A DNA stretch of 64,000 nucleotides from Moniliella sp. 'wahieum' (GCA_003971905.1 RSEE01000087.1:1-64000), one strand, 5' to 3'. Shown: positions 2,837 through 35,050, numbered from the stretch's first letter. The notes: a model not told the origin generated them from the letters alone. A program made the numbers and translations.

Positions 2837-2858
2837 TTTGTGGTAGTAGCGAGGCCGA

Positions 2859-3320
2859 CCCGAAGGGGAGAGAGTTATGCCGAGGCGATAGCTCGCTAAA
2901 ATCGTCCGCTCTATGCAGCATATGGCCTCCGTTCTCGATTGGACGCACCGTTGACAAGTTACACCCCCCATCCCTAACCCTACCCAACCCGACCCAACCC
3001 AACCCACCCTAACCCTAGAGGGGGAGGGGCCGAGGGTAGATAGCTCGCTACCGAAGGGGAGAGAGTTATGCCGAGGCGATAGCTCGCTACCGAAGGGGAG
3101 AGAGTTATGCCGAGGCGATAGCTCGCTACCCGAAGGGGAGAGAGTTATGCCGAGGCGATAGCTCGCTACCCGAAGGGGAGAGAGTTATGCCGAGGCGATA
3201 GCTCGCTAGGAAATCGTCCGCTCTATGCAGCATATGGCCTCCGTTTTTCGATTGGGCCAACCGTTGAGAAGTTACACCCACCCATCCCTAACCCTACCCA
3301 ACCCAACCCACCCCACCCAC
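2859..3320. repeat. Composite repeat block: 39-40-bp tandem unit plus degenerate telomere-like C-rich tracts, with a ~150-bp duplicated block
   Basis: Unit (C)CCGAAGGGGAGAGAGTTATGCCGAGGCGATAGCTCGCTA occurs at 2859-2898, 3051-3089, 3090-3128, 3129-3168 and 3169-3208, with a degenerate copy at ~3014-3050. CCCTAACCCTACCCAACCC... tracts lie at ~2972-3017 and ~3286-3320. Block 2859-3010 is repeated at 3169-3320. Confidence 0.95.
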
Positions 3321-3514
3321 ACCTGTTGATCATCTATGCAAGTGCATGCCATGAAGCGCTTGACAAAGTGGGACAGTCGTTGTTAGGTTCGCCTCAAAGA
3401 CCCACGACGGTCGTCGTCATTGTACACTTCAACATCTATGACAGGCGCTCGGATGCTTCTGTAGTGCATGTACTAGAGTGCATGGAGAGGTAGGCTGAAT
3501 GATGGTATGCATTG

Positions 3515-6500
3515 CTATGTTCCTATACATGCTTGGTGTTGAAGACAGGGAGCAGAGGCGTGGAGATGGGGAGCACAGGCTTGGGGATGGCGAGCACAGG
3601 CTTGGTAACGAGGATGCCCAGGTGGGTTGTGCCAAGCCGTTGGCCGAGGCGCAGGCAGCGGTGTACGTACAGGCACTGTACTTGGCCCGGCGTGTGCGGG
3701 CTGAGGCAGGATCCCTTCTGTCACATGGTCCCACACCTCCACTGGGATTGGGTCCAGCTGCGCCTCCAAGCTGTCATACGAGCTCCCCCTTAAGGACCGC
3801 GCAGGCGCCAAGGTTCGGACCCGCTTGTGGACCACTGCCTCCAGTGTAGGGTCGGGTCGGCGCTTGCTGCCCGACGCAGCTGCACCCGCGGGCAAGATGG
3901 GGTTGAGTTGCGTCCTTTGCCCGACGTCGGGAGCCGGCATGGTGGGACGGACGCTTGGTACGTTGTCCTCGTGCGTGCCGTGTGCGCCATCGGCTTGTTG
4001 CTGACCATCTTCATCTCCAGATGCTTCGTCTTGTTCGGTTTGGCGAGCGAGGGCAACGCCAACATGGTGTGCATTCTGATCATTCTCAGCTGGATGCCGT
4101 TCCTCGAAGAACCCGGCATCCGCTAAGACCCTTGCTCTGAGCTCCAAGCGCCTTGCTCTGCGCTCCTCGTCAATCTGCATCCAACGCGGAGATGGTGGAC
4201 GGCGTGTTGGATTCCGATCCGGCACGTGGGCCTCCTGCCATGTTGGAACGACCGGCTGGTCATCCACTCCCTGTTGTTCCGGGTGCCACCGCGGCGAGAG
4301 AGCGTGGCGATGGGTCACAGGCTCCTCGGTGGGCTGACGACGAGGCGGGCTGCTGATTTCCAAAGCTGGCAAGTCATCGGCTGCGCCTGGCCCATACAGG
4401 GGCGCGTCGTGCGGGAGCCAGGGTGGAGACTGCTCGTCGCGCTGCCTGGTCGCTGCTGCTGGCTCCATGCGCGGGGGAAGAAGAATGGGTGGCAGCTCGG
4501 CACGCGGGGGGCGCAGCATGGGCCTCGTCGCTCGCATGCTGTACACTTGCGGGCTCCCTCCACGTCCTGGCACCGCAGCGGCACGCCATACAGGCAAGTG
4601 TGTACTGCTTCAAAGAGGCAGTCCTTGTGTTGGAGCCAGTGGGCCACGTTGCCCATGTACGCCTTGGCATCGGACACGTGCCGAGTGAGAGCATCGCGCA
4701 CATCTTGCTGCGAGGCAAGAATGATCATGTCGCCCTGCTCGTTGGGCCCACGAGCAGCACGGCCGGCTGCCTGGATCAAGTCCAGCCCGGTAAATGGCAC
4801 GCCGAGCCAGATGACCATGTCACAGTCGGGAACATCAATCGACACGGAAAGCGAAGTGGTGCCAACCAGCACAACCTCCTCGCCCTGGATGAACTTGGCC
4901 AGCTGATCTGCGCCTTCCTCGCCCTCGGTTTCCCGCCTGTTGTAACCCTCACTGATGGCCGGACGGGGGGGAAGGTAGTGCTGAGAGGAAGAATGCAACC
5001 AAGAGTCAGTCAGCAAAGCGGGGCGTGACCACAGGCGGGGAACCAGGAATGGGATCGACGTACCGGGACGTGGAGAGCGGCGGCGGCAACATCGCGCGCG
5101 GCTTGGCGGCTGTTGCAAATGACGATCGCCCTATGAGGCCGATCTTGGGGCGCTGGTGTGCGAAGCCAGGCCTGGCGTTCGGCCAGCCGCGCCGCCAGCA
5201 GCTCTTCAAGCTCTTGCTGTAACCTCTTGGGCCTGGTATGGGAGCCTCGTGGAATACATACCGCACCTCGGGACGCGCGATTGGTTCGTTAAAGTGGGAA
5301 AAGCGCACGTTGCGAATGCCAGGGAGCGACAATGTCGTTTCCAACTCTCGCACCACCCCCACCGGCGCTGTTCCCGATAGGCCGACGAAGCGAGTATGGC
5401 GCAAGATGGGCGCAAGATAGCTGAGGTTTTTGAATTCAGTTCGGAAGTTGCCATGCAGCGCGATGAGATGCGCCTCGTCCACCACGATCCTTTCCAGTCG
5501 GCCCTCGAGTGCCAGCGCGCGAAGACAGTCGGCCAAGCCCTTTTGCGCCAGCTGACTGACCGTTACGAGCAGGACACGCGTGCCGGCCTGGAGCGGGTTG
5601 GCTTCGGGCGCGCCGCCGTGCCATGTCTGGAAGGGAAGGTCGTGCCGCCGCAAGCGGTTCTCAAAGTCGACCACCATGCTGTGCAGCGGCACGGCCACCA
5701 CATGCACTTTGGAGGGAGCTGCCGTCAGTGCTGGCACGAGCCACATCGCCGTCTTGCCCGCCCCGGTTGGTAGAGCAATCATCGATGCCGATCCAGGCTG
5801 GTCTAGCAACAGTCGTTCGAGGCAGAAGCGTTGCTCTTGGCGCAAGCCATAGTCGCCATAGATGCGTACGCCCACCTGATGCGCCATCGCCAGCCGGTCA
5901 TTTATGCTGGGCTCGGTGCGGATGACCGCGTTGGGTTGGCTCGGCTTGGCGTGCTCGGGAAAGTGGAGCTTGAGAATCTCCGTTTGCCAGTCGCGACTGA
6001 CAAAGCGGGACTTGATGATGCTGTCGGCCCCCAAATGGCCAATCTCTTCCGAGTTGATGCCATACGTCAGGGACGCCGTGTTGGCCGAGTGGCCTGCCTG
6101 CCCCGACTGGCTCGCCCACAGGATCTGCCGCTGCAGCGAACGGAGAGCAAACGCCGTGTTTTCGGCGTCGAGCGTCCCCTGGCGCAGCTCGTTGCCGGGG
6201 AGTAGTGCCGCATCGCGCTGCCGCTTCGACAAGGCCGCACAGTAGTGCCGCCAGACCATCAGGTTGAGCGGGGCGACGCAGCCTTGTCAGGCCAGGTAGC
6301 GCGCAGCACATTGCCCAGCCGGGTCGTCGTAAGTGGCTGCGAGCGCCGGTTGACAAACAGAAGCGGCTGACTTTTCGGCACTGTCGGCTCTCCATTCTCG
6401 TTACGCGGACCTGTTAGCCAGCGCAGGCGGTCGGTGAAGGGGCGAACGAGCAAGAGGTATGCTTTGAGCACCTTGCTGGTGATCGGATCCGGGAAGCGGG

Positions 6501-9500
6501 CAGCACGGAACGCAGCGTCGGGGCTGCTGTGCAGGGCTGTCTTGCTGCGGCGGAAGACGAGAAAGACCTCGTTGTCAGTGCCGGCGACATAGATGCCACG
6601 CGGCCCGGTCGTCTCATTGAAGCAGCGCAGCGACAAGGTCTCCACGCCGCGGGCAGACAGGCCACTGACGCAATGGATCGAGAGTGCCAGGTGGAGCAAG
6701 AACTTCTCCTCGAGGCGGAGGATCTGTTTGTGGAGATGCTCCTCCTCGGCGTCGGACTGCATGTCCTCATCTTCCCAGATGCGGTCCGCAACATGGCCGA
6801 GACCGAGTTCGTCCCTCCACAGCTTTGCGTGCGACTCGGCCTCCCAGACAAAGGAGTAATACTCAGCGGGGTTGTTGAGTCGGTCGCGCAGGTGGGTTTT
6901 GTCAAAGGGATGGCGGAGGTAGTGGTCCTGGTAGCGGGCGCGGCGGCCGATGGTAAACAGATCCAAAAAGGCATTGTCGAGGTTGATTAGAACTGTGCTG
7001 GCAAAAACACGCAGGTGCTCGTCGGAAAGGCAGGTGCCACTGGGCAGCACAATCTCATGGTCGTTCGGTACAAATGGCGAGTCGGGGCCGCCCACCGCTG
7101 CACGGGCCCGGCTGCAGTAGCGCAACACATTGCCCAGCCGGTCCGCCACACGCATGGTGCCCACCACCAGGTGCTCCTTCTCGTACGCACGCACAAACGC
7201 ACCCGCCTCGTCTGCCTTCGCTGCCCAGTCGAGCGTCCCATCCGAGCGCAGCGCCTCGGCATCGTTCAGCAGCGCCGCCGTGCAGCGACGCGACCATCGA
7301 CAGACGCAGGTTCCACATCAGCCCCGCCATCGCCGGCGACACTTGGTTCGGCGCACGAAACAGCAGGTGGCCCACCGTGCCTGCCCCACCCTCCCCGGGC
7401 GTCGGAGCTGCTCTGGGCCCTCCCACCTCCTCCTCCTCCTCCTCCTCCTCCTCTCCCTCCCCCTCCCCCTCCAGGCGATCGTCATCATTCGGCTGCTGGA
7501 GAATGTTGCCCACGATGGCGTGCCTAGTAACAGTGGGCGGACGCACCTGTTGCGGCTCATCTGCCTCGGGCGGGTACCAGATGCCGAGACACTGGCTAAA
7601 GGCAAACAGCCACAGCGGGCCTACATCCTCCAGGGTCGCTGCCCAAGGCCGTGTCGTGGTCATCTCGAGCCAGATCGCAAGGCGCTGCCAAAGCGGGTCG
7701 TAGTCAAGCTGCTGCGCTCCCGGATTGTCAACCGGGGGGTCCCAGGGGTTCGGCGCAAGGACATCGGCGACAAAGCTTTCCAGGGCACTCTCGCCCACTG
7801 GCATGCCGTCATCCTCCAGCGCCTGGATGAAGGCCTGCTCGTGCATCGACAAGACGCGACTGGCCAGGTCGGCCAGCGGGTGCTCCTCTGTGCCCCAGCG
7901 TCGCCCGCGCTCCGAGGAGCAACTGCATAAAGACAAAGCAGTCGCCTAACAAGCCGGTGTACTTGCGGATCGTGTCGGTACGGACCTGCAAGCCAAAGCG
8001 ATGGAAGCACGAGAACTCGGACTCTTGCCCGGCTAGCAATGGCGTGCTGGACGGGGTGGGAAAAGGCGAGAAGCGCCTGGGCCCATTGCAAGAGATTTTC
8101 ATTGGCACGCTTGCGTTCGTGGTTCATGTTTGGCAGATACCGCATCTCGGCCAAGCGCATCAGCGGTACCCCAGCCATCAACTCGGACACATGCCACATG
8201 CGAGGGAAGGAGCCCATGAAATGCTCGCCATCTGCAACGGTCAGCGGATCCTCCCCGGGTATGTGAGGCATCAAGCTGGGCGAGCCCTCCTCCCGCGTAA
8301 GGTCGGTATACGTCAGCAGAGGCCGCCGTGGCGGAGAGGCATCGCGCAGGGGACGGGGATGAGGACGATCGGGCGGCGCCGCGGCTGGTGGAGAGGCGTT
8401 GCGCTGCCGCCGCGGGGGGGCAGGCGAGGGCGAGGGAGACTGCGTCGGCCGGCCTGCCTCGGTCGACTCTGCCTCGCTAGGGGATGCTTCCTGGGTGCGT
8501 GCTGGTCGCCGAGTGCGCGCTGGTACCCAGTCCCATTCCGATTCGGAGTCGCTGGCCTCATCCACGTCTCTCCGCTCGGTGTCGCTGGTATCCTCGTCAC
8601 TCTCGGGATCTGTTGCTCGTTGTATCGTCATCCGTTCCTCGGTTGCGCACCGGGCTGGTGGAGGGGGCGACTGGACAGCTGCGGCTGCATCAAGGCGCCT
8701 CGCAGCATCGATCGCGGCTGGTGGCGCATCGGGCCCAACAATGGCAACGGTAAGGTCGTACAAGACTCGTTGGGTGGGAAGCCAGAGCGGACGAGGGTGG
8801 TGGCCGGTAGTGCGGGCGTGCTTGCGTGCGGGTGGTGGTTGCGAGCCACCTGCAAGCATGTGCGGCACACCTCTTTGGGAGGGGAGATGGGGATGCGATC
8901 GACTGGCTCGGTGAGGTACTTGGCAAAGTGCTTGGCTACAGCAGGGCCTGGGTACAGCGCAGGGGGCAGCATGCGGAGTGCAGTACGGGCAGACTCGACG
9001 TGGTCGTCGAGGAACAAGGGATGCGTACCGGAGTGGTCGAAGGCTTTGACTCTTGCAGTGGAAAGATGCGTGTCGGGCACAAAGTATTTGCATTCAGAGC
9101 AATACAAAAGGCGCAAGTCGGAATTGTACTCGATGCCGATCGGATGGAGGGAGCGGCGGATGAGATGGAAGGGGTCTTGAAAGATGGAGGCGGCGACCTG
9201 ACCTTTGAGTTGAAGACATTCCTTGCGTGCTGCGTGCGGTGCGGGCATTTTGCGGAAGGGAGGCAGAACAAGCAGAGCACGAATAGCCTGGTACGTTGTG
9301 GTCAGCACTGGCTGGAAGGGAGGATGGGGGGGACATACCATCGTCGTTCGCTTGGATGCACACCTGCTGCGGCGGCAGTCGGACGAGATGGTGATTTTGG
9401 TGGTGATGACAGACGTGCGCGGCTGGGGAGGAGGCAATGGCGAAGGGGACAAGCCGAGCGGCGAGGTAGGTGCAGCAACAGGGGGAGGTGATGCTGGTGG

Positions 9501-9885: not shown

Positions 9886-10657
9886 GGTAAGGCGAGGATG
9901 GTGTGATGTGAGGAGGAGGGGGCGCGTCGGGAGGCGTGGGAAAAGGAGGAAGGAAATGAAAGAATGCATGCAGCGCGTCGCGTTGGGGGGACAATTATTA
10001 CGCTGCCGCCGTGCGGGCACATGCATCGATACTTGATGCGCGTTAGCGCGAGGCGACGCGACTTGGCGACGCGTTGAGCCATGCGCGCCGCACCAAAATG
10101 GACGTATCTCGGCCGTTTCTCGACCGATTGGGCTGAAATTTGGCATGCGACTAGCCATGCCATCAGACTACCGATACCAGGTGGTACATCTACCACCACC
10201 ACCCTTGGGCACAAGATACTGCATGCATACGGTACAGACGTCGGACGGCCCAACGAGTGCCTGATATGGACGATGCTCGCCATGAAACGGCCATGCGTGG
10301 TAAGAAAGAGTAGTGGTGGTGGAAGAGGGGGTGGTAGTGGTAGTGGGGGTGGTGGGGGGTGGAAGTGGGAGTGGGAGTGGGGTGGGAGTGGGGGTGGCGA
10401 CGGGGGTTGCGCCTGCAGCGGCGGTGGTGGTGGCGTGCACATGCCAATGGCGGTTGTGTGGCGGTGGCGGTGGCGGTGGCGGTGGCGCGCATACTGAGCA
10501 AGGCTCTGACCGCGGCGGCGGGCTCTGTTGAATTAATGCGTGTGCCACCAACTCTCCTGGGCACTGGTCACTAGTCACTGGTACGCGTCACCGGTCAGGC
10601 CCCGGGGCCCGGTTGTGACTACGTCATAGGTCATCGCTCAGGCTCAACCCGGGTCAC

Positions 10658-29575: not shown

Positions 29576-32500
29576 GCGCGGGATACCTGCCCCCCGTCAT
29601 CCTCTTTCCACCGCCAGCGTGTGTCAATGGAAGTGAGACGAGATAGCGATAGGCCTCAGGGAATCGAAGGATGCATGCGGTGGTGAAGGGGAAAGCGATG
29701 GAGAATCAGTACGACAAGTGTATTTTGTTTGTTTCTATAAATCTGTGCGTCGTGTTATCGGTGCCGCCCCATAAACGAGGCCTTCATCTTGCGATACCAC
29801 AGTTAGACTCGAGCATGTGCTGGCTCTACAGAATGAACTAGAATCGTAGGGAAGCTCATGCTATATCTGACGTATCTCTATTTCTCGCTGCCTCGTGCAC
29901 TCTGTCTGCGGAAGAACTGCCCAGGCATTGAAAGGTCGTCTTCTTATCGAATCAGAATCGCGCGCCGTTGTCATACACAGTGAAGCCAAAGATACCTGCA
30001 CAAAATAGGGGGTTCAATGAGGGTACAAAAAAAACCTGAACAATATGGACGTTCGGTTAAGTAGTCCCATTACTGCGTCTAACTGAGGATGAATGCAAAA
30101 AAGTCCTGGAACGCCTCTACATAGATTCTGAGCAAAGCGCGAATCAATACAAGAGAGAAGAAAAATATAAGATCCTGCTCAGTGGTGACTGCAGCGTCAC
30201 TGGTAGCAGGCATGTCTTCACTCGAGCACGTAATCCATCCACGCAACAGAACCAGGCGATACAAAAGGGGGATCATATTTTTTCTGGGATGCCCGTTTTT
30301 CCATGATGATGGGCGAGCAATTGTAAGAGTTGGAAGAACAGGCCCATAGCTGAACATACTTTTCACACATTTGCCCGTCGAGCCGGGAATCTACGTGGCG
30401 GTCTTGTCTACATTACATGAAGAACTGTCAACTGGTTTGGTTAGAGTCCATAATTGTCCTGGTGTAAAATACTACTATTGGGAGAGTGTCGGCCTCGCTA
30501 CTACCACAGGATGTGAGCACTGGGACGGATGTCAACAGAAAGAAGAGAATATACTAAGGGTTCACTCAATCGTTTACTACCCTTGTGAAGTGTGCGTCTA
30601 AAGCACCGGTAACTGCCACTGGATCGTTGGAGGACATAATGAGTTTGTGGCATACAGACGCCGTTTCTGATGACACATGTCCAGATACAGGTTTTGAATA
30701 AGTCAAGTCAACTGAGGGGCAGTGCAGCTGCTAGAAGGGAAATGACCTGTAAGATACGCTCCTCCATCGAAAAATAATCGAAGTGTTTAGCAACTACATT
30801 TTTAATTGGGCTCAATGCCCGTACAAGGTTTACGCAAGTTATATGGTACAACAAGAATTTTACTGACCCTGATCTTTCCTGATAAATGGAAACTAGCAGC
30901 AACCGAGACGGTATGCACGATGTACATGAGGATAGCGAAAAATAAAATAAATGGATTTGAGTCTTCTAGAGTGCGACCTGGATCTGATGTATCTCCTGCC
31001 TAATCGCCTTCAGGAAGGGTTGGGGCAAATAGGGGTCTGACCGCTGTCTTTAAACAACGCCTGGATTGGATGAGACAGGAAAGAGACGAACCAGATGGAG
31101 CGATACCCATCCTGTGAGGGGAACATTTCTGCCCGGGTAGGCGAGCGTCACAACTAACTGAAGGCTGAGCAAGGAATCTGGCCCTATCCTCCAACAGAGA
31201 GGCACGTTAAGTGGCGCTCGTCACTGCATAGTGCATCCTGGCCCAAATATCCAGAATTGCTACTAATTTACAATTGCTACTGCAAACTTCCACTCAGCTA
31301 CAACTCTGCCTATCTCTATAAATGTGAATTGCATAAAATTCATATCCATTCAGCGAACTTGCAACGGCAACACAAGGCCAAGATTACCTTACAATTTATA
31401 CCCACTGTGGGTGAGAGCGTGGACTTGGGTCTGTTTCGCCATATCCCGAAGAATTAGCTGTACTTACCAGAACCACTGATGAGAAACTCTTTCTAAGAGT
31501 GTAATCTTAATTTCTGTTTAACAAAAAGGAAAGGCAGGAGTATGTGACCGTACATCATCGCTCATTCCCAATGGGCGTCGGGAACATGTCAATGTATGGG
31601 CTTGGGCAGCGAGAATAACCATTCAGCTTTCAGCTCGTCTGAGCCATTTTGTGGTGTCCGTTCCCGTGTTCATCAATGATTGTTATCTTGGTATAGAAAG
31701 GGAGTTTGAAACCCCCCAACACTTGAGTGTACCTACTAAGGAATAAAGGCCTAGATGCAATAGCTCCCATATGGAACGGAGACCATAGTTCCCTTCCAGA
31801 CAAGGGGAAGAAACAATTATTTTGAGACGCCATCGCTGTCGCAACTTGCGCTGGCCTGAATCATGCAAGAAGCAAATCTTCGAGTGATGTGCGTTGCACA
31901 AGACCCCTTCTGTTCCGCGTCCAGTTAGGGTTTTCAAGTCGTAGAAGTTCAACGCTGGCAATTCGCGTTGAGTTGTGGCCACGACCGGCGTTTCCCGGAC
32001 GTTCACAGGTAGTCTGTCTCAATGTCCGAGCCAGTTGCAGTCGAACCAGTGGCAACTGCAAGCATGAGACCCTGATGTACTGTACGTTTCGCAATCATTT
32101 CCTGATTCCGGTTGTAATAGCGTTCGCGATTGTATGAAAAAGAGGGAGCAGATGGTTCCAATGAAGAAGTGATCTTACGCGGGGTACATAGTTGTTATTC
32201 GACTGTGAATCAGTGGTGTAATAAAACTTACCTGCAACCGCGTTGATGCGGCCTGACCCTAAGATTAATCCCATGCCAAAGGGGTTGTCCAAAGTGAAAA
32301 AAGATAGGTCCCATTGGATACGTGCCCGGACGGGACACATCAACGCGATTGCCGCCCTCTTATCTCCCCCACCGGTTTGCCAGATGCCGAGAGCCGCTCC
32401 GCATCCATTTTACGAGTCGCTCCTTCAGAGTTTGGTTTAGATAGCAAGCTCCATCCTCCAGCCAGTTGTTCCGGGAACTTTCTGGCATGGCTTTTTCCTG

Positions 32501-35050
32501 TGTAATGAGAGGGATGCGAATTTCTTGGATATATACCCCTGGCGCAAACATGAGGTTAAGCTAAGTACTTCTATTATAGCGAGATATGGATCATGGCCAA
32601 GCGCATTTAAGTTTATGGCCGAGCTTTAAAGCTATTTGTTCCGGGAACTTGGGTTTACCCCATATCAACCCCGCAGCCGTGTACTCACGAAAAACAATAA
32701 AAAAAACTATCATGCCAAATGCGCAAGAGGAAACGGGGATTGATAGCGGCAGCTCCACGTTTATTGTGATTCTTTCCGATCTGCTTGGCCTGTTTTTGAG
32801 TGCGATCTCCTGTTCGGTATTGGCGGCAGCCTTGGACCGTGGAAACATCATGTAAGAAAACTCGAAACACCATCGAAACGCCCCGAAATCTCTTCCGCTC
32901 TGATTTCTAGATTCGTCACTTTTGCAGAGGGAGCGTCAGAAACTCACGTGTCCAGTGAATATTGTGTAAGCACCGGTCAATACAATCAAGAGGACAGCGA
33001 TGTGATCAGCATGTCAGGACTCCCTCCCTAGCTCTCACGCCCATTCGCTGCCAGACCGGATGTAGCGCGAGTGGAAACTGTTGAGCCATCAGGTGGCTCG
33101 TGCTTTCATGGCCAATGCAGGCCTGGGAGTTCCGTTGTTTTCTCTCTCGTTTTCCTTGTTCCGCAGCTTAGTCCCTGGTGGCGACTCGCGGATTGATGTT
33201 CCTCTGTAGGCGTTGCTGGCTGGCTTAGACTACCACCACCGCCAGTGCGATTGTATCGCCCTCGAGGACCATCAGGACTCCAGGTCTCATCAGAAACGAA
33301 TGAGCGCGGTAAACATATGCGGTGGACCATTGCTAATAAGGCTTTTCAGTAGTTTCTTTCAATGCCCACCCTCTTATCGACAGTCTTTGAAACCCATAAT
33401 TACCTAGGGTTGACTTGTCCAGAGGGAAGAAAGTGGCCATGATGTGGGTGCACCCCTCTACTGTACTTGGCTTTCTAGCGGAAGCTGTTGCGAAACCAGC
33501 TTTCTCCTCGAACAGCTAACTCATGATGCAGCTCTCCATATCTCCGGGGGTTCCTAAGGCGCAGGCGTTTCACCTCATGTGTGTACTGTACGACTTTTTC
33601 CAGAGAACCCTGGGACACGTCATTGAGTCCGTCAAGGTGCTGATCCACCTCCACCCCTGATCCATCAATGAATGCTCTTGGTTTCATCATCATCGTGTCT
33701 GGATGCGCTCCACGTTTATGTCTGCCCGCCCACTTTGTCACGGTCAGTTCCTCTACAACCGGTTGAGTCAATTATTGGGGGTCGCGGACGGACAGAGCAC
33801 ACATGGTTGAGGATCGGTCCATCCATAGCCTCCTAAAGTGCAGAGCCCTAGACTTCGATGAAGTGCAGAGTGCAGGCCAGGAGCTTAAACTTAGTCCACA
33901 TGGGGCACATTACCGCACGAGACCGGAACGGCTCAGGGTATGGAGCCAGTGGGGAACAATCTGGATTTACCTGTTGGGCAAAGCTCGAGTTCGACACCGG
34001 CTGTTGCAGGCATAAAGGAGAATCAAATGTGTAATAGGTGAAATAGATTGCTCGAGTTGGGCACCGTCACGCCCCAGGATAATAGTAGTACTGGTAACGT
34101 ACAGTGGCAACATGGCCGTTTCACTCTCGCCGAAAAAAAAGTCGGTAGTGTGCAGAAGATAGTTGTCCGAGTATCACAGCGTTTTTAGCCGGCCCGTCGA
34201 CTCGGGGAACTCACGATCACCCCATTGCTGGCACTACACATCCCGGCCGACATCTTGACCAAAACTGTTTGGCATTCATGGCCAACCTTCTTCCCCGTCT
34301 AACGTTTTGCGGTATTGCGACATCCACCGTGCCTGCGAGCCGCCCCTGGACAGCGGGTGTGGTATACCACTGAGTGGTCCCGAGCCCATCGGCAGTGATA
34401 CATTGTCCGACAACACACCAAGCATGTATCGGGCCAGCGTATCTACACCTTCCACCAGCTTTCAACTACGGAACTTACAAATGACAGCCCCACAGATCTA
34501 GTAGTTCTCTCCGCATGCATATGGCCAACGCTGCCAGCTATAGGCAGGGTACAGAATTGGATTCCATCTCATCGTCAGTCTCGTTAAGGTTCTTCTTTTG
34601 AAAAGTCCTGTCACATGTCAACGCTCTCTCCCGCACTGTGTTACGTCTTGTATTTCCAGAGCAGGTGCAGACTTTGAGGTCAGCAAAAGTGGGGATACAA
34701 TGTGCGTTTCCCGATTCGCATTTCTTACCGCGGCCTTTAACCTAGAGCTAATATCCGTCAATGTAAAAGGGTATCAAACATCGATTATTCCGATGCATGC
34801 TTCTAGAAGTACAGCTGCCGTTGCACATAGCGGGGCAGTACAAAAGGTTGCAAAGTTGGTACACGAGAGGTTCGTCCAAGAAACAAGTGAGAGTGAGCGG
34901 CGACAGACAAGTAGGTGTTTTTAGGTGTTTATGCACCCCGGGTAAGGGGGGTGAAAAAGTGTCATGGGGCTTGGGGTTTGGACGGGAGAGGATGCACCGC
35001 TCTTCCAAGCGAAACTGCCGCGTTTTAAGCGTCAGAGGCGCACATGCCCG

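Follow-up and report, generated by a model that had tools for sequence, protein, structure and literature searches.

What did a fungal telomere-linked RecQ helicase once carry in front of its motor? The question is raised by a 64,000-nucleotide stretch of DNA from Moniliella sp. 'wahieum' (GCA_003971905.1, RSEE01000087.1:1-64000), referred to here as the window, whose minus strand holds at about 9.2 to 4.7 kb a broken copy of a fungal-type telomere-linked RecQ helicase (TLH) gene. An original prediction, made from the sequence alone, had picked out catalytic motifs of a tyrosine recombinase just upstream of the helicase and proposed an integrase-helicase fusion that acts as a mobile system. 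The domain assignment and the fusion are upheld by the evidence below, whereas the mobility part of that proposal has no supporting result. At a probability of roughly 0.55, we favor the view that these genes encode a divergent tyrosine-recombinase/topoisomerase-IB domain fused to a RecQ helicase and serving a selfish subtelomeric element.

The four motifs on which the proposal was built are all present on the minus strand at the codons that had been named. SGLSARGVE (6640-6666) contains the putative first catalytic Arg at 6649-6651, followed by a conserved Glu; RSKT (6538-6549) contains the putative beta-hairpin Lys at 6541-6543; VWRH (6245-6256) contains the putative second catalytic Arg at 6248-6250; and GHSANTASLTY (6062-6094) contains a His at 6089-6091 and, nine residues on, the presumed nucleophile Tyr at 6062-6064. 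XerD has its Tyr at the same His+9 spacing. The motifs also lie upstream of a helicase core, as had been claimed: PTGAGKT and DEAH come downstream of VWRH and GHSANTASLTY in the same frame, within an ATP-binding lobe at 5231-5833 on the minus strand (Pfam DEAD E 2.7e-10; Walker A PTGAGKT at 5750-5770, DEAH at 5468-5479). All 35 PDB sequence matches of the open reading frame (ORF) at 5006-6259 are RecQ-family helicases (BLM, RECQ5, RecQ, WRN, RECQ1), and from these sequence matches the core is RecQ-type. The C-terminal helicase lobe follows in another frame at 4711-4947, minus strand (Pfam Helicase_C E 9.1e-10 on ORF 4315-5118; motif VI QAAGRAAR at 4750-4773).

Relatives of the upstream region are few. 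When ORF 6259-7194 alone was used in HMMER to search 1.84 billion representative proteins exhaustively, only 35 proteins were found at E<=1e-3, the best being P0002 (1373 residues, 36% identity, E 6.6e-44), and three word-index homology searches added only P0047, P0048 and P0049. Conservation of the catalytic residues among homologues, a check that the original prediction had named, was read from an alignment of 39 rows (A2: 37 proteins and two pieces of the window copy), in which counts are taken only over rows with a residue at the column. The columns are kept: the first Arg in 37/38, the Glu three residues later in 37/38, the Lys in 38/38, the second Arg in 32/33, the His in 31/32 and the Tyr at His+9 in 29 of 29, with exceptions in P0009 (Gln), P0023 (His) and P0030 (truncated end). 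The relatives that conserve the five residues are only 17-30% identical. Furthermore, the query stops before the second Arg, the His and the Tyr, and hit selection therefore cannot account for the conservation of these three. Judged from the alignment, the Arg-Lys-Arg-His-Tyr pattern is beyond chance.

The fusion to a helicase is likewise a property of intact proteins. Pfam detects DEAD and/or Helicase_C in 4 of the 35 relatives (P0002, P0022, P0028 and P0035), and further helicase-bearing members are P0042, P0047, P0048 and P0049; in all eight the recombinase-like region is N-terminal to the helicase on one polypeptide, so that the two activities would be joined in one protein, as proposed. 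From the N-terminus, intact relatives have a C2H2/OrsD zinc finger (in some members), a helical region, an approximately 250-residue domain and lastly the RecQ-family helicase. P0002 has the approximately 250-residue domain at about 826-1075 and DEAD from 1114, and P0048 contains OrsD, the domain and the helicase. The OrsD zinc finger (PF12013, formerly DUF3505) was found in 6/35 relatives at E<=0.01 and also in P0047. The relatives that carry names come from Colletotrichum, Fusarium, Cadophora, Leptodontidium and Leucocoprinus, while most records are unnamed; in the ESM-Atlas, 27 of the 30 nearest clusters (score 0.9 or more) are unnamed fungal protein clusters. Many members, such as P0013, P0056, P0012 and P0054 (Colletotrichum, Fusarium), combine OrsD with the recombinase-like domain and have no detectable helicase domain, one of them being annotated 'tlh3'. 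Thus, the helicase is not an obligatory partner of the recombinase-like domain.

Two records of the family need a separate word. P0047 (Leucocoprinus leucothites, 3055 residues) runs from OrsD through the recombinase-like region and the RecQ helicase into SPT5-type KOW domains, and is probably a gene model that merges a TLH-like gene with an adjoining SPT5 gene. The 90%-identity cluster of P0004 includes P0037, a 76-residue fragment labelled Enterococcus faecium among eukaryote-like proteins, which probably derives from a contaminant contig in a bacterial assembly.

Predicted structures give the second line of evidence for the domain. An AlphaFold2 model of P0002 residues 632-1091, built from an alignment of relatives (A1), reached a mean predicted local distance difference test score (pLDDT) of 80.7 and a predicted template modeling score (pTM) of 0.79. 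Its top Foldseek matches in the PDB are XerA (E 0.1, probability 0.72), human topoisomerase I, Tn1549 integrase, XerD, XerH and Cre; nothing was found in the PDB at E<=1e-3, and the global scores are poor, as expected of a two-domain query. A model of P0036, which starts just before the catalytic domain (pLDDT 78.6), fares better: PDB ranks 1 to 47 are all tyrosine recombinases or type IB topoisomerases, including XerH (E 1.3e-3, probability 0.99), XerA (0.99), an integrase from methicillin-resistant Staphylococcus aureus (0.98), Tre/Cre (0.91-0.96), bacterial topoisomerase IB (0.69) and lambda Int. Taken together, the two models match topoisomerase I from human and from Leishmania as well as a bacterial topoisomerase IB. 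A viral structure library returned mostly integrases and Tyr-recombinase-domain proteins, with a Feldmannia virus protein as the best match (E 6.6e-4). The nearest named ESM-Atlas clusters, which serve as leads only, are Phage_integrase, NDC10_II and Integrase_2, at 0.82-0.84.

A number of points weigh against this assignment. The Foldseek E-values are borderline and the template modeling scores low (0.27-0.48); the structures are predicted, and the alignment behind them is shallow (37-39 rows); the better-scoring model is that of a distant relative, P0036, rather than of the window protein; and in that model pLDDT falls below 50 around the Tyr. Sequence profiles offer no significant match either, so that the comparison with Cre, XerD and lambda Int that had been proposed as a check succeeds with the predicted structures of P0002 and P0036, which match the superfamily, and fails with sequence. 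Pfam finds a recombinase family in 0/37 rows of A1 even at E<=10 and none on the window ORFs; phmmer against PDB sequences gave nothing significant for the recombinase-like part. The family profile searched against PDB sequences found only the integrase 3nkh (E 0.13, aligned on the second-Arg region), and comparison by hhalign with Cre, with lambda Int and with nine phage integrases combined into a profile gave E 0.31-0.69 at probabilities below 1%. Finally, the first His of the HxxR motif is absent from the window and from the whole family. Its replacement by Met in the window had been correctly described, but it is not a local oddity, as the column is variable among 32 rows of A2 (R15, Q8, S4, A3, K1, N1).

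The non-significant alignments are nonetheless in register. The hhalign alignments set the family Arg and Lys on what we take to be the catalytic residues of Cre (R173/K201) and lambda Int (R212/K235), and the profile alignment sets the second Arg on the HxxR Arg of 3nkh. We call the relationship remote because sequence-only tests fail and the support comes from predicted structure and ordered conserved residues. On these grounds we take the approximately 250-residue domain to be a very divergent tyrosine recombinase/type IB topoisomerase-like catalytic domain; this assignment is supported, and the original interpretation as a whole partly so.

Because the first His is lacking family-wide, the putative active site is as much topoisomerase-IB-like as integrase-like; R-K-R-H-Y is also the composition of the type IB topoisomerase active site. 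The second Arg and the His are about 53 residues apart in the window, and roughly 20-25 apart in Cre and XerD. The tyrosine site-specific recombinases (XerH, XerA, XerD, Cre, lambda Int and Tn1549 Int) have in common with the family the predicted catalytic fold and the order Arg, beta-hairpin Lys, Arg, His, Tyr. In contrast to them, the family is without the first His of HxxR, has no Pfam match and has a helicase and a zinc finger joined to the domain. Type IB topoisomerases and telomere resolvases resemble it in having R-K-R-H-Y without the integrase first His, and topoisomerase I structures are among its fold matches, but type IB topoisomerases rank below recombinases in the P0036 search, no topoisomerase Pfam match was found in the family, and the domain context is different.

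The domain most likely corresponds, by position and layout, to the TLH domain of the literature. That literature describes TLH proteins as carrying a pair of C2H2 motifs, a TLH domain some 250 residues long that directly precedes the helicase, and the RecQ motifs, and gives their function as undetermined; since the late 1990s such genes have been recorded in many fungi at the ends of chromosomes, with the TLH domain left without an assigned function. The relatives share with the TLHs of Magnaporthe oryzae (TLH1), Schizosaccharomyces pombe (Tlh1/2), Ustilago maydis (UTASa), Fusarium oxysporum and Botrytis cinerea the order of C2H2/OrsD, approximately 250-residue domain and RecQ helicase. A Botrytis preprint gives the same TLH layout and counts 14 subtelomeric copies in one strain, with two other strains having none, and a preprint on subtelomeres reports genes with OrsD/DUF3505, DEAD and Helicase_C in subtelomeres of Fusarium, Colletotrichum and Pyrenochaeta. 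In the same literature, the distribution of TLH genes is patchy and includes a choanoflagellate, TLH-type copies mutated by repeat-induced point mutation are reported, and the genes are considered as candidates for a role in telomere maintenance, comparable to the yeast Y' helicase, which is induced when telomerase is missing. A further point against our reading is that the identity with TLH rests on position and architecture, the sole sequence link being a 90%-identity cluster that contains a 'tlh3' protein from Fusarium coicis and whose long members have no helicase Pfam match.

The recombinase/topoisomerase reading of the TLH domain appears to be new in the literature searched. The words 'recombinase' and 'integrase' have 0 occurrences in the available text of the paper describing the TLH domain layout, as does 'recombinase' in that of the subtelomere preprint. 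The full-text literature searched contained no link of TLH genes to tyrosine recombinases or Cryptons, although an earlier remark in supplements is possible.

How might such a protein be used? We propose that the intact proteins would cut DNA through a 3'-phosphotyrosine link and then rejoin or exchange strands, while the attached RecQ motor would unwind or branch-migrate the same substrate. The most likely use would be to recombine or copy the protein's own gene cassette between chromosome ends; in other words, a selfish subtelomeric element may act at telomere-proximal repeats. We favor an end-seeking selfish element because of strain-level presence/absence, patchy distribution, frequent decay, helicase-less paralogues and the kept catalytic residues. 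More speculatively, and with a good deal less conviction, TLH genes may not be host helicases at all and may form a separate class of self-propagating eukaryotic elements, in each of which one protein would combine a strand-transferase of tyrosine-recombinase/topoisomerase-IB type with a RecQ motor, and its recombinase domain would take telomere-like repeats on the 3' side of the unit, such as those at 2846-3322 of the window, as the crossover site. Crossover at telomere-like repeats would account for the homing of the family to the ends of chromosomes, both in fungi and in a choanoflagellate.

If the TLH domain is a working DNA breaking-rejoining enzyme, both the spread of TLH genes among chromosome ends and any part they may have in recombination-based telomere rescue become testable at the bench with a single Tyr-to-Phe mutant. 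A protein that unites recombinase chemistry and a RecQ motor in one polypeptide would also be unusual in its architecture as an enzyme, and could represent another lineage of eukaryotic tyrosine-recombinase elements, in addition to Cryptons, DIRS-like elements and Starships.

The explanation that best survives next to the selfish element, and which we consider possible but on balance unlikely, keeps the chemistry and changes whom it serves. Here the domain would be a host-serving, type-IB-topoisomerase-like or junction-resolving partner of the RecQ motor for recombination-based telomere maintenance; the fused helicase and nicking-closing enzyme would process recombination intermediates, and the genes would be multi-copy only through subtelomere duplication. 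RecQ with Top3, and reverse gyrase, are analogues of such a machine. The R-K-R-H-Y set that lacks the integrase first His, the eukaryotic and bacterial topoisomerases among the fold matches, and the position of TLH genes at chromosome ends, where they are discussed as possible telomere-maintenance factors, all speak for it, and a telomere resolvase of the same superfamily is reported to unwind DNA (PMC5388405). However, recombinases outrank topoisomerases in the P0036 model (probability 0.99 versus 0.69), and the first four of the five observations for which we favor a selfish element fit a dispensable element of that kind better. The second copy that mobility might have left was not found within the 64-kb window, nor were element ends, empty sites or circular junctions seen, which also counts against the selfish element, and the present data do not separate such an element from a host-serving helicase-topoisomerase machine.

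Alternatively, the domain could be a recombinase-derived DNA-binding module that has lost its chemistry and only targets the helicase to DNA, in the manner of Ndc10/Cbf2 and the Crypton-derived DUF3504 proteins. Such domestications are documented in a Crypton survey (PMC3212892), NDC10_II is among the nearest named ESM-Atlas clusters (0.83-0.84, a lead only), and the first His is missing. According to the same survey, domains of Crypton origin that are domesticated and no longer catalytic lack the Tyr and the second Arg (PMC3212892), whereas the family keeps Arg, Lys, Arg, His and Tyr in 29-38 of the covering rows, in proteins that are 17-30% identical. The fact that domesticated recombinase domains lose catalytic residues which this family retains argues for chemistry, and makes a purely DNA-binding role improbable. 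Least of all do we credit coincidence, in which the TLH domain would be helical but unrelated, and both the motifs and the matches in fold would be artefacts of pattern-reading and of AlphaFold on shallow alignments: no sequence method is significant and Foldseek E is no better than about 1e-3 with low template modeling scores, but the five conserved residues have the correct order and spacing, the non-significant alignments still register Arg and Lys on Cre and lambda Int and the second Arg on the 3nkh HxxR Arg, 47 consecutive PDB matches belong to one superfamily, and an independent viral library agrees.

If the favored reading of a selfish element with a catalytic recombinase-like domain is right, the known eukaryotic elements offer a comparison. 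Cryptons, DIRS/Ngaro elements and Starship captains are, like the family, eukaryotic, largely fungal, multi-copy and equipped with a recombinase-type domain. At the sequence level the family is distinct from Cryptons and Starship captains, in agreement with what had been predicted, since Pfam gave no Crypton-derived, DUF3435 or phage-integrase match; among 37 members there was no match to DUF3435, NDC10_II, GCR1_C, DUF3504 or Phage_integrase. Starship captains are defined here by a DUF3435 recombinase domain at the 5' end of the element, which 0/37 family members match, and Cryptons have an R-H-R-Y tetrad whose His the family lacks. Movement through a circular intermediate that uses short direct repeats has been proposed for Cryptons, and a helicase is mentioned 0 times in the Crypton survey (PMC3212892). 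The Academ transposon, which combines a RecQ helicase with a DDE transposase, was set aside, as there is no DDE domain here. Chlamydomonas RECQ3 was dropped as a lead, as it concerns a host gene.

The window copy itself can no longer make the protein. The span homologous to intact TLH-like relatives extends over 4711-9224 on the minus strand and contains a zinc-finger region, the helical N-terminal region, the recombinase-like domain and the RecQ helicase, distributed over a chain of overlapping ORFs in frames -3, -2, -3, -1, -2, -1, -3 and -2. The originally flagged span of 5006-7194, which comprises ORF 6259-7194 (311 residues) and ORF 5006-6259 (417 residues), is only about half of this homologous region. 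With P0002 as the tblastn query, 9224-5061 is matched in seven pieces in frames -3, -2, -3, -1, -2, -1 and -3 (best E 3.6e-46 and 7.9e-66), and with P0048 and P0049 Helicase_C pieces are found at 4947-4711 in frame -2. The copy was therefore read as a pseudogene, as at least seven frame changes fall within 4.5 kb (9224-4711), one of them inside the helicase, and the alignment pieces abut or overlap; a very poor assembly is much less likely. Thus, the supposition that a single frameshift separates the gene from an intact one does not hold.

The one frameshift that had been noticed, near 6270, is real. The first of the two strongest pieces (6262-7296, minus strand, frame -2) takes in the helical N-terminal region together with the front half of the recombinase-like domain, including the first Arg and the Lys, and aligns to P0002 residues 631-972 at 34% identity (E 3.6e-46). 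One frame terminates after RATWPDKAASPRST and the other continues with GCVAPLNLMVWRHY, whereas the closest intact relative, P0002, runs uninterrupted through the site (RAVWPDPVVAPKLTLQIWRQY). When both translations are compared with the unbroken P0002, the break that splits the recombinase-like domain is placed at 6262-6290 on the minus strand, and is a small indel between about these positions, outside any homopolymer run. An intron at about 6270 was ruled out, as P0002 aligns over the junction without a gap.

At the other end of the gene, a motif scan found a CxxC...H...H zinc-finger-like motif (CSECKYFVPDTHLSTARVKAFDHSGTHPLFLDDH) at 9000-9101 on the minus strand, which aligns with the N-terminus of P0002 and is the counterpart of the N-terminal C2H2/OrsD region of relatives; Pfam OrsD gave no match on the window ORF itself. 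Between 7400 and 10500, long overlapping ORFs occur on both strands, rich in Pro, Gly and Arg and accompanied by simple repeats (CCT x15.7 at 7426-7472; GTGGGA-like arrays at 10310-10397). These are probably for the most part chance open frames in G+C-rich DNA over the decayed 5' part of the gene.

Telomere-like repeats adjoin the window copy. Two direct modules, each about 170 bp long and 89% identical to one another, are found on the plus strand about 1.4 kb past the 3' end of the gene relic (2846-3020 and 3150-3322), each ending in a degenerate CCCTAA/CCCAA tract of about 50 bp (2967-3018 and 3276-3319, plus strand; 3 matches against 0.06 expected). A 40-bp tandem array of 4.3 copies (3039-3208, plus strand) is flanked by the modules. 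The C-rich strand is the plus strand, and the gene therefore points toward an apparent former chromosome end, now followed by a Copia fragment. We hypothesize that 2846-3322, from its appearance, is what remains of a chromosome end, now in an interstitial position, or else may be a site at which the TLH unit recombines. Unlike the TLHs, the copy is internal to a 64-kb stretch with ordinary genes, adjoins only this degenerate telomere relic, and is broken.

The window as a whole is eukaryotic DNA of about 60% G+C. Its ordinary genes include a ceramidase in pieces (21.4-24.4 kb) and genes for a protein kinase (49.2 kb), squalene epoxidase (53 kb) and a START-domain protein (60 kb). Positions 1-2700 of the plus strand are occupied by a Copia-type retrotransposon fragment, with RVT_2 on ORF 1543-2169 and flanking pol-like ORFs, which leaves the window at the left and stops just before the modules. 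From 30001 to 34000, the G+C content drops to 0.46-0.50, compared with about 0.6 elsewhere.

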